DNA of 64,000 bases from a virus (IMGVR_UViG_2724679538_000004:45799-109798), one strand, 5' to 3'. Counted from the first letter of the stretch, positions 14,247 through 17,900 are shown. Notes: generated from the letters alone by a model not told the origin. A program made the numbers and translations.

Positions 14247-14843
14247 ATGACGACGAAGACACCAGCCCGATCGCAAGCAAAAACTCTCAAAAAAGCCAAA
14301 AACAAAAATTCTCCCCGCACCAATCACACAACGCCTGTCGTAGAGTTCAATCCCCAGCTTAAAACCGTGAAAATCTTTAGTGATGGCTCTTGCCTTAAAA
14401 ATCCGGGTGGTCCTGGCGGTTACGGTATCGTTCTCCAGTATCGTGGTGAGGAACGCGAGTTCTCAGATGGTTTTCATAGCACCACTAATAACCGCATGGA
14501 GATGATGGGCGCACTCATCGGGCTGGAGCGTTTGAAATATCCATGCAACGTTATTTTGTACTCTGATAGCCAGTATCTGAAAAACGGCATGACACAGTGG
14601 ATGAAATGGTGGAAACGAAATGGATGGATGACTTCTGATAAAAAACCGGTAAAGAATGTTGATCTGTGGAAGCGTCTGGATGAGGCCGCAAGTCGACATA
14701 ATGTTCGCTGGAAGTGGGTTAAAGGCCATGCGGGACATCGTGAAAACGAGATCTGTGATCGTCTTGCTAAGATTGCAGCATTCACTGCCGCTGATACTCC
14801 ATTTAAAAAAGATTTAGGTTTTTTGAATCAAAATAGTAAGTAA
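14247..14843 (+). CDS. rnhA: ribonuclease HI with basic N-terminal extension
   Basis: [45 protein letters not shown] align with E. coli RNase HI; ATG 14247 preceded by CAGGAG. Confidence 0.85.
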
Positions 14844-14985
14844 GTATTTACCTATTATTTAGATTAAGGTATTCTGATCACCGTCAGGATGACAATGTGT
14901 CGGTGAGACACAGTTCCAGGATGGAACGGGAAAGGCGGCTGGTTAATGCCAGCCGCAACTCTTTCTGACACTGGATGGAGTCCTA

Positions 14986-15483
14986 ATGGCACGTCAAACC
15001 TATTTCACTTCTGCAACTAAAAGCAAACGCCCACGCTCTTTACGTCAAATTTTGGCCGAGCTATTTAGCGGTCGCGCTTTGTCACGCCTTGATGAACTGG
15101 AGTCTACCGTTCAGTTGCTGACGAAACGTTTAGATGATCAAGCATCAGTCGTTGCGAATATGGGGGCGATTGTTACCTCTCGTTCTTCACGCGAGGCGAA
15201 AAAAGTACGTCCTTTAGTGAAGGAGAAAAATAACAAGGACAGTTCGAATGGAAAATTTTCAAAGAAAGAGGCTGAAACCAATGGCCTACGCTCTCATTTT
15301 GCTTTCACTGGCGACGGTAGCCGTCCCAGCAGGCCAGAGCCTTTTGATGCAGGATTCTTCCACCACACGTCAGCCGACGACAATTTCCACCGCTCCAGTG
15401 GAGCGTCCTGTCTCTCTGGATGGGATGTCGGTGGATGCGATACCTCAAGTTCATCCAGTTACTCTGGATCATGCTGCGATTAA
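14986..15483 (+). CDS. hypothetical protein (Ser-rich C-terminus)
   Basis: 165-aa ORF with GGAG RBS. Confidence 0.4.
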   Translation: MARQTYFTSATKSKRPRSLRQILAELFSGRALSRLDELESTVQLLTKRLDDQASVVANMGAIVTSRSSREAKKVRPLVKEKNNKDSSNGKFSKKEAETNGLRSHFAFTGDGSRPSRPEPFDAGFFHHTSADDNFHRSSGASCLSGWDVGGCDTSSSSSYSGSCCD

Positions 15484-15492
15484 GGCTGTTGC

Positions 15493-15681
15493 ATGAACTG
15501 GCTTTCAAATCACTTTGGAAAAATTTGGCTGGTTATTGTGGCTCTCATGGCCGCAGGTTGGGTGTCAAACATTGTAAAACTCGTTTGCTCTGGGGATCTC
15601 CAGTTTCAGGCTGGAATGACTCTGGCTCGTGTAGTTGGGATTTTTATGTTTCCAGTCGGTTCGGTGCTTGGCTATTTCTAA
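15493..15681 (+). CDS. small hydrophobic (membrane) protein
   Basis: 62-aa ORF with two hydrophobic segments. Confidence 0.4.
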   Translation: MNWLSNHFGKIWLVIVALMAAGWVSNIVKLVCSGDLQFQAGMTLARVVGIFMFPVGSVLGYF

Positions 15682-15740
15682 TGCGTGTCGGAGTTGAGGC
15701 TTTAGAAGCCATAGTTCATGTAATTCTGTTTACTTCACTT

Positions 15741-15760
15741 AGAAAACAACTTGTTTTGAC
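15741..15760 (+). promoter_or_regulatory. promoter/operator family motif (AGAAAACAACTTGTTTTGAC)
   Basis: Near-palindrome upstream of the TerB-like gene. Confidence 0.4.
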
Positions 15761-15782
15761 AAATAACATATAGGAAAAACAC

Positions 15783-16208
15783 ATGTTAGGTTTCTTTAAA
15801 AAGAAAACTCGTAAAGCTGTTATCGAAGTCAAAAAAATGGAGAACCGTGATGCGGTTGAAGCCACTGTGTGGGGCGCGTATATGATCTCCTATTCCGATG
15901 GCACATGCGATGCAAAAGAAATTTCCATTCTTGAGAAAACAATTGCAGCTCTGCCTGCGTTTTCTCCGTTTGCTGCTGAGATAGCCCAGATGAGTGCCAA
16001 TATCCGCGCTCAATACGAAGCCTCACCACGCCGAGCTAATGCTCAAGCTTTACGTGAACTGGCTGATGTGGCCGGGACTAATGATGCAGTAGATGTTCTG
16101 TGTCTGTGTATTGATATTGCCGATCAGGACGGTATTGGCGAGGAGGAAGAGTTGGTGTTGAAAAAAATCGCTCAGGCGCTCCAGCTTTCACTGGATGCTT
16201 ATCTCTAA
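15783..16208 (+). CDS. TerB-like domain protein
   Basis: Two repeated segments (ISYSDGTCDAKE... and IDIADQDGIGEEEE...IAQALQL) resembling the TerB tellurite-resistance fold. Confidence 0.55.
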   Translation: MLGFFKKKTRKAVIEVKKMENRDAVEATVWGAYMISYSDGTCDAKEISILEKTIAALPAFSPFAAEIAQMSANIRAQYEASPRRANAQALRELADVAGTNDAVDVLCLCIDIADQDGIGEEEELVLKKIAQALQLSLDAYL

Positions 16209-16366
16209 TGCTTGAGAGATTCCGGCTTGTGATCGTCATTGCTCTTTTGGTGATGGCGGTGCTGGTGGATTTTACGGGAAAGATCATGTCTGTCATTTCT
16301 GATGGCGTTCTTGTTGGTCTGGCGATCTACTTCGCTCGCCCTCTAATCCGTAATGCAAAGTGTTAA
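16208..16366 (+). CDS. small hydrophobic protein (52 aa)
   Basis: TAATG-coupled to the TerB-like gene; mostly hydrophobic; below the ORF-track size cutoff. Confidence 0.35.
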   Translation: MLERFRLVIVIALLVMAVLVDFTGKIMSVISDGVLVGLAIYFARPLIRNAKC

Positions 16367-16371
16367 TAACA

Positions 16372-16397
16372 AGGGCCGACTATGGCCCTTTTGTTTC
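16372..16397 (+). terminator. intrinsic terminator
   Basis: AGGGCCGACTATGGCCCT hairpin plus T-run. Confidence 0.5.
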
Positions 16398-16408
16398 ATG
16401 GAGCGCGT

Positions 16409-17224
16409 ATGTTTGAGATTTCAACACTCACTTCTACTACCAAAGGTTTTCACGATAAGCCTTCAATGACCAGTCAGGAGATTGCCGAGTTGGTTGGCAG
16501 TCGTCACGACAGCGTTAAACGCACCATAGAACGGCTGGTAAAAACTGGCGTCATTACTTTTCCACCAATGGTGGAAAAGCCCACCGCAGGTCGCCCTTCG
16601 ACGATGTACCTGTTTGAAGGCGATCAGGGCAAACGAGACAGCATTGTCGTAGTTGCGCAGCTGTCGCCGGAATTTACGGCACGTTTAGTTGATCGCTGGA
16701 GAGAGTTGGAGTCCATATATGGCGCAGCTGTGACTCCAGCGATACCTCGTACCTACAAAGAAGCTCTTGTTCATTTGCTTCATCAGGTTGAAGAAAACGA
16801 GCGCCTTGAAAAGAAAAATGAGGCTTTGGAAGTAGCGCTGTCAAATGCAAAGCCAAAAGCCATTCTGATGGATACGATTTGCGGAACCGCAAATGAACTT
16901 TACGGGCTTAATGAAGCTGGGCGCATTCTCGGTACATCTGGTGTTGTTATGGGGGAATTTCTGGATTCTCTTGGCGACGTTTATGTAAAGCGCAAATACA
17001 CAACTATCAATCGTCAGTTCTTGAAGGCTTTCATTGACCGTGGCTATGGGAAAAATGTCGTGATCGGAACTGGACGTAACCAGGCAAAATTCACCTTTAA
17101 GGGGCTTTGCTTTGCGGCTGTGAAGCTGATTGCCGCAGGAAAAATAACCGTCAACTCCATCGAATATGAACCGTGCCGGGAACATGTTGAGCGTGAATTG
17201 AAGGGCGCAAAAAGTCTTCATTGA
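16409..17224 (+). CDS. Rha-family phage regulatory protein (antirepressor-like)
   Basis: MTSQEIAELVGSRHDSVKRTIERLV matches the Rha N-terminal signature; ATG 16409 with GGAG RBS. Confidence 0.55.
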   Translation: MFEISTLTSTTKGFHDKPSMTSQEIAELVGSRHDSVKRTIERLVKTGVITFPPMVEKPTAGRPSTMYLFEGDQGKRDSIVVVAQLSPEFTARLVDRWRELESIYGAAVTPAIPRTYKEALVHLLHQVEENERLEKKNEALEVALSNAKPKAILMDTICGTANELYGLNEAGRILGTSGVVMGEFLDSLGDVYVKRKYTTINRQFLKAFIDRGYGKNVVIGTGRNQAKFTFKGLCFAAVKLIAAGKITVNSIEYEPCREHVERELKGAKSLH

Positions 17225-17295: not shown

Positions 17296-17316
17296 AGAAA
17301 ACAACTTGTTTAATCA
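17296..17316 (+). promoter_or_regulatory. promoter/operator family motif (AAGAAAACAACTTGTTTAATC)
   Basis: Directly upstream of the RBS of the 17331 gene. Confidence 0.4.
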
Positions 17317-17330
17317 TCAAGGAAAAACAC

Positions 17331-17900
17331 ATGTGCGAGAAATGCAAAGCGATAGCTGATGAACAAAATGCCCTATTTGAAGAAATGGGTGCTAATGAGC
17401 TGGTAAAAATGTTAGCCATTCTTCGGGGAATAGAAGACGTTTCCATATTTGAGAGAGTGCTAACAGCACATAGTTTTAAGTCTACCTTTGAAGAGCCAAT
17501 TCAGGTTGTCGCTTTGGCGCACCATTTTGGTGTTCATTATCTTGCTGAAAAAGAGCGAGCTAAAAAGTTGCAGGCGACTTTGGATATGGTGAGCGAGCCT
17601 CAACGAACTCATGACGATAACAAGAGTGAGACGATTATTGCTGACAAAGATCGTGAAATTGCCGGACTCAAATCCTCTCTAACAATGTTGATGTCCGCAA
17701 TGAACCTGGTGTCATCTCAGGCTGGCTTAAAAATGCCATCACTAAATAGCTATGATCCGATGGCAGTGCGCCAGCTGCTTGGTGCAATGGCTGATCAGCT
17801 TGACGACACGAAAAATCGTATTGAAGATATGATGCGGGAACTTAGTCATCGTCATAATCTGACAACTCAGCCACATAAAGCTTTTCAAGTATCACATTAA
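17331..17900 (+). CDS. hypothetical protein
   Basis: 189-aa ORF with AAGGAAA RBS. Confidence 0.45.
   Translation: MCEKCKAIADEQNALFEEMGANELVKMLAILRGIEDVSIFERVLTAHSFKSTFEEPIQVVALAHHFGVHYLAEKERAKKLQATLDMVSEPQRTHDDNKSETIIADKDREIAGLKSSLTMLMSAMNLVSSQAGLKMPSLNSYDPMAVRQLLGAMADQLDDTKNRIEDMMRELSHRHNLTTQPHKAFQVSH

Follow-up and report, generated by a model that had tools for sequence, protein, structure and literature searches.

Bacteriophages P1 and P7, which are classified in one species, Punavirus P1, carry a short module in which a gene for a TerB-type protein is followed, across an overlapping stop and start codon, by a gene for a small protein of the DUF3927 family (P1 tciA-tciB(-tciC), P1_gp074-076; P7 terB-upf69.4-upf69.6). 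Repression of P1 tciA, tciB and tciC by CRISPRi showed them to be non-essential and dispensable for plaque formation (PMC10695390), suggesting an accessory or conditional role. TerB is also a component of the terZABCDE(F) operon, which makes cells resistant to tellurite and to pore-forming colicins and inhibits phages (PMC11003894, PMC12054061) and for which a TerC-TerB membrane complex and an amphitropic TerB have been reported (PMC11003894, PMC12054061, PMC7823757). TerB-type domains with membrane-embedded partners are found in the anti-phage systems Shango (SngA), Bunzi (BnzA) and Dionysus (DinB, with the pore-forming DinC), where a membrane-surveillance role has been proposed for them. In the host proteins DjlA (N-terminal domain) and YebE/DUF533, a TerB-like domain is held at the inner membrane.

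The locus described here belongs to a viral DNA stretch of 64,000 nucleotides (IMGVR_UViG_2724679538_000004:45799-109798), which is referred to as the window. The original prediction placed a 141-aa TerB-like protein between a 62-aa and a 52-aa hydrophobic protein, the latter coupled through a TAATG overlap, and we find the three ORFs and the overlap as described (Table 1). Purifying selection is evident on all of them, with dN/dS of 0.03-0.11 for the 141-aa ORF, 0.2-0.5 for the 52-aa ORF and 0.1-0.23 for the 62-aa gene, so none of the three is a chance ORF.

Table 1. Features of the tciA-tciB locus and repeated motifs of the window; (-) marks motif A sites on the minus strand.
Feature	Position	Strand	Remarks
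62-aa gene	15493-15681	+	two-segment hydrophobic protein; phrog_6006 at 3.3e-24
Motif A, perfect copy AGAAAACAACTTGTTT	15741-15756	+	left edge of the tciAB insertion when compared with SSU5
Shine-Dalgarno AGGA	15772-15775	+	7 nt before the tciA ATG
tciA	15783-16208	+	141-aa TerB-fold protein
tciA stop / tciB start overlap	16204-16210	+	TAATG
tciB	16208-16366	+	52-aa DUF3927 protein with two hydrophobic segments
Terminator-like hairpin AAGGGCC-gacta-GGCCCTT with T-run	16371-16397	+	terminator scan; SSU5/Cyrano alignment
Motif A sites	5343, 15741, 17296, 18636, 21726(-), 27652(-), 27700, 29315(-), 30499, 31408(-), 32157, 32972, 42918/42946		
Motif B sites	2904, 7632, 12609, 14837, 20350, 39364, 44885, 46400, 48323, 50964, 57442		

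Sequence comparison identifies the 141-aa and 52-aa ORFs, almost certainly, as the tciA-tciB pair first annotated in phage P1. TciA of the window has the same length as P1 TciA and is 84.4% identical to it over the full 141 aa. The 52-aa protein is a member of Pfam DUF3927 (46.4 bits, cutoff 25) and matches phrog_1470, annotated as 'TciB-like', at 2.5e-22, though it is only 42-44% identical to P1 TciB. The nearest relatives of the window are the SSU5-like phage-plasmids of E. coli PhiR41_1, CMS-2020a and Cyrano (86-88% nucleotide identity), and in Cyrano the two genes are already labelled 'P1 TciA-like' and 'P1 TciB-like'. The same three genes are present in 179 plasmids of PLSDB, where they are labelled 'TerB family tellurite resistance protein | hypothetical protein | DUF3927 family protein'; 170 of these plasmids are from Escherichia, 176 are non-mobilizable, and sizes are 106-114 kb among the matches listed. 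Given the identity with P1 TciA, the family match of TciB and the labels in Cyrano and PLSDB, the module is already known and annotated, also in close relatives, and its function has been assigned by inference only. The description of the locus as an unexplained small module therefore stands for its function and falls for its identity, and as the outcome of a genome scan the finding is ordinary. The pair is widespread, occurring in P1 and P7, lambdoid phages, SSU5-like phage-plasmids (the 179 PLSDB records), and N4-like and jumbo phages.

The likeness to P1, whose annotation was taken from GenBank, has limits. A blastp search turned up no TciC-like counterpart of the third P1 ORF, either in the window or among the non-P1 loci; a 34-aa ORF behind tciB in phage LMessi was considered and rejected, being neither hydrophobic nor TciC-like. 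The P1 copy has the C1-controlled ban promoters upstream of it and is surrounded by tRNA genes and a dicF-like region, whereas the copy in the window lies behind a repeated motif (motif A, discussed below) in an SSU5-type region of early and DNA-metabolism genes. A general association of the pair with tRNA genes was also rejected: it holds for P1, P7, JLK-2012, ChrisDB and Nican01, but for only 7 of 45 further loci, and the window has no tRNA gene.

The two-repeat TerB-like pattern recognized in the 141-aa protein was borne out by profile searches. TciA matched Pfam TerB (PF05099) with an E-value of 1.3e-7 over profile positions 9-109 of 118; the score of 32.3 bits exceeds the gathering cutoff of 24.4. 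A profile built from family alignment A2 matched the structure of Klebsiella TerB (PDB 2JXU) with an E-value of 2.2e-11, residues 14-136 aligning with residues 20-145. A profile was required for this match, as a single-sequence phmmer search of TciA against the PDB found no TerB; a caltractin EF-hand in the same search stayed below threshold (E 0.23) and was not retained as a relative. Searches of NCBIfam gave sub-threshold matches only, and an identity of TciA as DjlA was discarded on a match far below threshold (E 0.076). TciA shows the all-helical, TerB-like three-dimensional fold and resembles TerB of the ter operon in its full-length profile homology, similar size, basic N-terminus with FF and conserved acidic loops. 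The operons differ in that no TerZ, TerA, TerC, TerD or TerE gene is adjacent to tciAB, and that the partner here is a 52-aa hairpin protein rather than the multi-pass TerC.

The two motifs on which the pattern was based, ISYSDGTCDAKE and IDIADQDGIGEEEE, are both present and correspond to the two conserved D-G...E loops of the family. In alignments A2 and A3, residues D39, G40, E46, D116, G117 and E122 of TciA are either invariant or conserved to at least 90%. These loops are the predicted divalent-cation sites of TerB domains, and cation binding by TciA is putative. The six-helix core is acidic, with a net charge of -12 (residues 20-141), and is preceded by a polybasic N-terminal tail, MLGFFKKKTRKAVIEVKKM, with a net charge of +6, which is conserved and aromatic. 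TciA has a pN of 0.06-0.10 with synonymous sites saturated. This constraint is far stronger than that on TciB and fits the presence of a conserved host ligand or partner. Unusually conserved as the protein is, its name rests solely on homology, inherited from the 2004 annotation of P1.

The hydrophobic character claimed for the small ORFs holds for both, each having two hydrophobic segments by Kyte-Doolittle hydropathy, with best 19-residue windows of 2.06 in the 62-aa protein and 2.51 in TciB. Both ends of TciB carry basic residues, and two conserved Asp residues lie close to the turn; the residues of TciB conserved in alignment A1 are R6, D21, F22, S28, D32 and P45. TciB is probably a hydrophobic hairpin of two segments, and the basic residues at both of its ends suggest an N-in/C-in topology. 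Natural fusions of TerB and DUF3927 are found in databases, one per subfamily (P0072, 196 aa; P0155, 171 aa). These could be real proteins, or they could be artefacts of single-base frameshifts at the overlapping stop and start codons. An AlphaFold2 model of P0072 has the TciB part as one long helix with a pLDDT of 63-83 and carries no information on a hairpin or an interface.

Comparison with relatives suggests that tciAB was inserted as a cassette into an SSU5-like backbone. The gene order in SSU5 is RNase H, a 165-aa ORF, the 62-aa ORF, motif A, a terminator, Ant and a 189-aa ORF, without tciAB; the 62-aa gene is followed there by the palindromic motif and, about 25 nt further on, by the terminator hairpin. 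In the alignment of the window with SSU5 and Cyrano, the ribosome-binding site, tciA and tciB lie between motif A and this hairpin (16371-16390). The hairpin is backbone sequence, follows tciB within 5 nt and bounds the insertion on the right. At the nucleotide level, the window resembles the P1 and lambdoid copies only over about 15772-16213, which is essentially the tciA coding sequence. The absence of tciAB from SSU5, the absence of Ant from Cyrano and the restriction of P1/lambdoid homology to the tciA region are all consistent with a cassette of about 0.6 kb (ribosome-binding site, tciA and tciB) in the backbone of an SSU5-like E. coli phage-plasmid.

The Rha/Ant-like anti-repressor gene downstream (16382-17224; Phage_pRha, phrog_63) is present in the window and in SSU5 and is absent from this place in Cyrano, which has tciAB. 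The window has both. This pattern points to two independently variable cassettes within a short stretch.

The 62-aa gene is best read as a backbone neighbour of the insertion site that lies outside the cassette. It stands beside tciAB in every SSU5-like locus and in none of 32 loci of the P1/lambdoid type, and it is coupled through ATGA to the ORF upstream and not to tciA. It is probably co-transcribed with tciAB. The idea that both small hydrophobic proteins are membrane partners of the TerB-like protein thus gains support for TciB downstream and loses it for the 62-aa protein, whose gene belongs to the SSU5 backbone.

The proposal that tciA has its own promoter motif did not survive inspection of the region upstream. 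A TTGACA at 15756-15761 overlaps the 3' end of motif A and lacks a -10 hexamer 16-18 nt downstream; the expected position is occupied by ACACAT, over the tciA start codon, and a transcript that starts there would be without the AGGA ribosome-binding site. This hexamer was ruled out as a promoter on spacing. A consensus scan found no sigma-70-like promoter on the plus strand between 14700 and 17400. The best alternative is TTGAGG at 15694 with TGTAAT at 15717 (15694-15722), a weak candidate whose 19-nt spacer is outside the spacing limits of the scan. Transcription of tciAB could come from read-through from the 62-aa gene or from this weak TTGAGG/TGTAAT start.

Motif A, AGAAAACAAnTTGTTT, with the palindromic core AAACAAnTTGTTT, occurs at about 16 distinct sites in the window, with 26 matches where 1.36 would be expected. 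The best copies are located exactly 10 nt downstream of a -10-like hexamer, (TG)nGATAAT, CATAAT or CACAAT, and 12-27 nt upstream of an ATG. Genes behind motif A include the small subunit of RNR, a DNA methyltransferase and several genes without known function. Motif A looks like a phage-wide promoter combined with an operator or leader, or like a cassette-junction element. The tciA copy keeps the motif and not the -10-like part, and the tciA leader (15767-15787) is almost the same as the one in front of the 189-aa gene (17315-17335; repeat families D3/D19). This suggests that tciAB has been plugged into a regulatory or recombination element used throughout the phage and has no private promoter.

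To see how stable the pair is, we compared 82 loci (80 viral contigs, P1 and Cyrano), and a TciB-like ORF was found immediately 3' of tciA in all 82. Two more sets were added, 80 loci of the P7 type, in which TerB is about 33% identical to TciA of the window, and 54 loci from bacterial genomes. Where the flanking sequence was long enough, the TerB stop codon lies only a few nt from the start of a small ORF with a transmembrane segment (mostly at offset 0 or -3); this holds for 79/79, 80/80 and 50/51 loci of the three sets, 209 of 210 in total. The coupled ORF is DUF3927-like in 79/79, 80/80 and 24/51 loci, respectively. The loci without DUF3927 are nearly all chromosomal loci of Pseudomonas, in which its place is taken by an unrelated coupled protein of about 67 aa and a single transmembrane segment. 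In the reverse direction, a single-sequence search with TciB led to 63 loci, and TerB was directly upstream in every one. The rule that emerges from these comparisons is that a phage TerB is predicted to come always with a translationally coupled small membrane protein, whose family can change. For TciA and TciB, the overlap of the tciB start with the tciA stop suggests that the two proteins are probably made together by translational coupling.

Several partners in this collection deserve mention in their own right. The Pseudomonas protein of about 67 aa is coupled to the TerB gene through ATGA (loci L195-L223, for example L195:2941-3144) and has one N-terminal transmembrane helix, a tail of the form C.WYGYQT[DE]R.T[RK][YF]A..VGCMVK...PR.E.R..Q and no Pfam family; a CsrA-like ORF comes next in several of these loci. 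Vibrio phage vB_VpaP-MS02 has a TerC-family gene (PF03741, 3.6e-41) directly upstream of TerB (L088:375-1920). In Pseudomonas phage Nican01, an unannotated TciB-like ORF of 60 aa lies right after the TerB gene (L087:1935-2117).

Sequence divergence within the pairs is uneven. P1 and P7 have TciB proteins that are 83% identical and TerB partners that are only 31% identical, which points to a recombination breakpoint at or near the tciA/tciB junction. The window likewise combines a P1-like TciA (84%) with a TciB that is 42-44% identical to that of P1. These two mismatches show no tight co-variation of TciA and TciB, which suggests that any contact is limited to conserved sites, that is, R6, D21, F22, S28, D32 and P45 of TciB and the basic tail and acidic loops of TciA. 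Alternatively, the two proteins share a target without binding each other.

The genomic contexts give some indication of when the pair acts. It is found in temperate phages and also in strictly virulent ones, namely the N4-like Salmonella phage FSL SP-076 and Erwinia jumbo phages. In the lambdoid phages LMessi and JLK-2012 it lies between the Q antiterminator gene and the holin-endolysin-spanin genes, in P1 and P7 it is downstream of the C1 operator that controls ban, and in the window it is placed among early and DNA-metabolism genes behind motif A. Together, the virulent carriers, the Q-holin and C1/ban placements and the early-gene context point to a role in lytic growth and not in lysogenic conversion.

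From these observations we propose that TciA could be a soluble TerB-fold protein that attaches by its polybasic tail, and together with TciB, to the cytoplasmic membrane from the inside. During lytic development, both proteins would act jointly on the cytoplasmic side of the inner membrane, in the manner of a TerB-TerC unit scaled down to phage size. We consider such joint action at the membrane somewhat probable. The pair would protect or monitor the integrity and energisation of the inner membrane of the infected cell, and possible effects are exclusion of superinfecting phage DNA, blocking of pore-forming colicins and avoidance of premature holin triggering. A specific role in membrane guarding or exclusion is doubtful by comparison. 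Against the proposal, the Phi and colicin phenotypes known from the ter operon belong to terZ, terC and terD, not to terB. As a whole, the best explanation, the P1 pair present as a cassette and acting at the membrane in the proposed way, has a probability of roughly 0.4 in our estimate.

The proposed arrangement has parallels in host proteins and defence systems. DjlA and YebE have their TerB-like domain at the inner membrane, as proposed for TciA, whereas in tciAB the anchor and the TerB domain are separate polypeptides and a J-domain is missing; relatives of the P7 type also match DUF533 (PF04391), and one of them bears the name DjlA in its source. Shango, Bunzi and Dionysus combine TerB-type domains with membrane partners as well, but they reside in host defence islands, whereas tciAB is carried by phages, virulent ones included, and has no helicase/ATPase, MAEBL or pore-forming-toxin partner. 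None of the defence models of PADLOC v2.0.0 matched any of the three proteins (E up to 0.1); this version predates Dionysus, which was compared by gene content only. It is unlikely, though conceivable, that TciA-TciB represents a minimal membrane-surveillance device of phages, with a TerB sensor and a tiny hairpin, as the viral counterpart of TerB-based defences. Such a device, if real, would exclude competing phages or colicins, or blind TerB-dependent immunity of the host, and the interchangeable partners (DUF3927, the one-TM Pseudomonas protein and TerC) would provide it with different outputs or anchors. With the comparative rules derived above, the function of this widespread and highly conserved phage TerB module is easy to test.

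Other functions would account for parts of the same evidence. The pair could be a host-takeover factor that blocks cell division (filamentation, the 'i' of tci). Y. pestis and E. coli form filaments when terZAB is expressed and not when terCDE is (PMC4633105), P1 tciABC lies downstream of the dicF-like region and the C1-controlled ban promoters, and a P1vir transcriptome preprint places tciA/B/C with icd and kilA as cell-division genes, by annotation only. However, filamentation and lethality were mapped mainly to terZ and terA, not to terB alone (PMC4633105), and TciA of the window has no TerZ or TerA partner, which makes this reading quite unlikely. Very unlikely in our view is a counter-defence decoy, a TerB mimic tethered by TciB that would jam TerB-based systems of the host (the ter operon, Shango, Bunzi or Dionysus). 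The very strong conservation of TciA would be expected for a protein that has to fit a conserved host partner, TerB domains are part of several validated defence systems, terC contributes to phage resistance, and virulent carriers gain nothing from lysogenic conversion. Yet PADLOC found no similarity to TerB proteins of defence systems, and E. coli K-12, the usual host of P1, is without a ter operon (stated for DH5alpha, PMC4633105). Equally improbable is a helper in metal homeostasis, in which TciA-TciB would bind divalent cations at the membrane, or would modulate TerC-family transporters of the host, and tune Mn, Zn or Ca. The conserved acidic DG...E loops of TciA, the conserved Asp of TciB in or near the membrane, the TerC gene directly upstream of TerB in the Vibrio phage and the effect of terC on Zn and Mn tolerance are in line with it; on the other hand, a 52-aa TciB is too small to be a lone transporter unless it is oligomeric, and nearly all phage loci examined are without TerC.

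A single membrane module built from TciA and both small hydrophobic proteins, in keeping with the original prediction of a three-gene unit, has become highly improbable. In its favour, the three genes follow one another on one strand without a strong terminator in between, and they always occur together in the SSU5-like lineage of E. coli and Klebsiella. Against this stand SSU5 itself, which has the 62-aa gene without tciAB, the P1, P7, lambdoid, N4-like and jumbo phages, which have tciAB without the 62-aa gene, and the coupling of the 62-aa gene to its upstream ORF. We give hardly any credence to a genuine tellurite- or colicin-resistance determinant that acts by lysogenic conversion, which is what most database names say. 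These names derive from TerB homology, whereas tellurite resistance needs terCDE and is fully kept upon deletion of terZAB (PMC4633105). Moreover, terC, terD and terE are absent from the genes that flank the pair (RNase H, the 165-aa ORF, the 62-aa ORF, the Rha/Ant-like gene and the 189-aa ORF), and the pair is found in virulent phages. The 'tellurite resistance' label in databases is probably misleading.

Two further features of the window were observed in the course of this analysis. Upstream of the 62-aa gene, the stretch 14986-15496 holds overlapping ORFs in different frames that both belong to PHROG families, a 165-aa ORF (14986-15483; phrog_10411, 7.8e-67) and an 82-aa ORF (15248-15496; phrog_15659, 1.9e-34). 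A hydrophobic segment resembling a signal peptide lies near the N-terminus of the 82-aa ORF, which is the one coupled through ATGA to the 62-aa gene. Both frames can be aligned in relatives at about 68-72% nucleotide identity, with 51-58% (165-aa frame) and 59-65% (82-aa frame) amino acid identity in most of them, and the overlap may represent dual coding or a frameshift site. A search of Rfam found no RNA family in the window. The second feature is motif B, TAGGTAAGTAnTTACCTA, an 18-bp palindrome with 11 sites in the window against 0.04 expected, and it may serve the phage-plasmid as an operator or as another kind of protein-binding site. One of its copies (14837-14854) is located at the stop codon of the RNase H gene.
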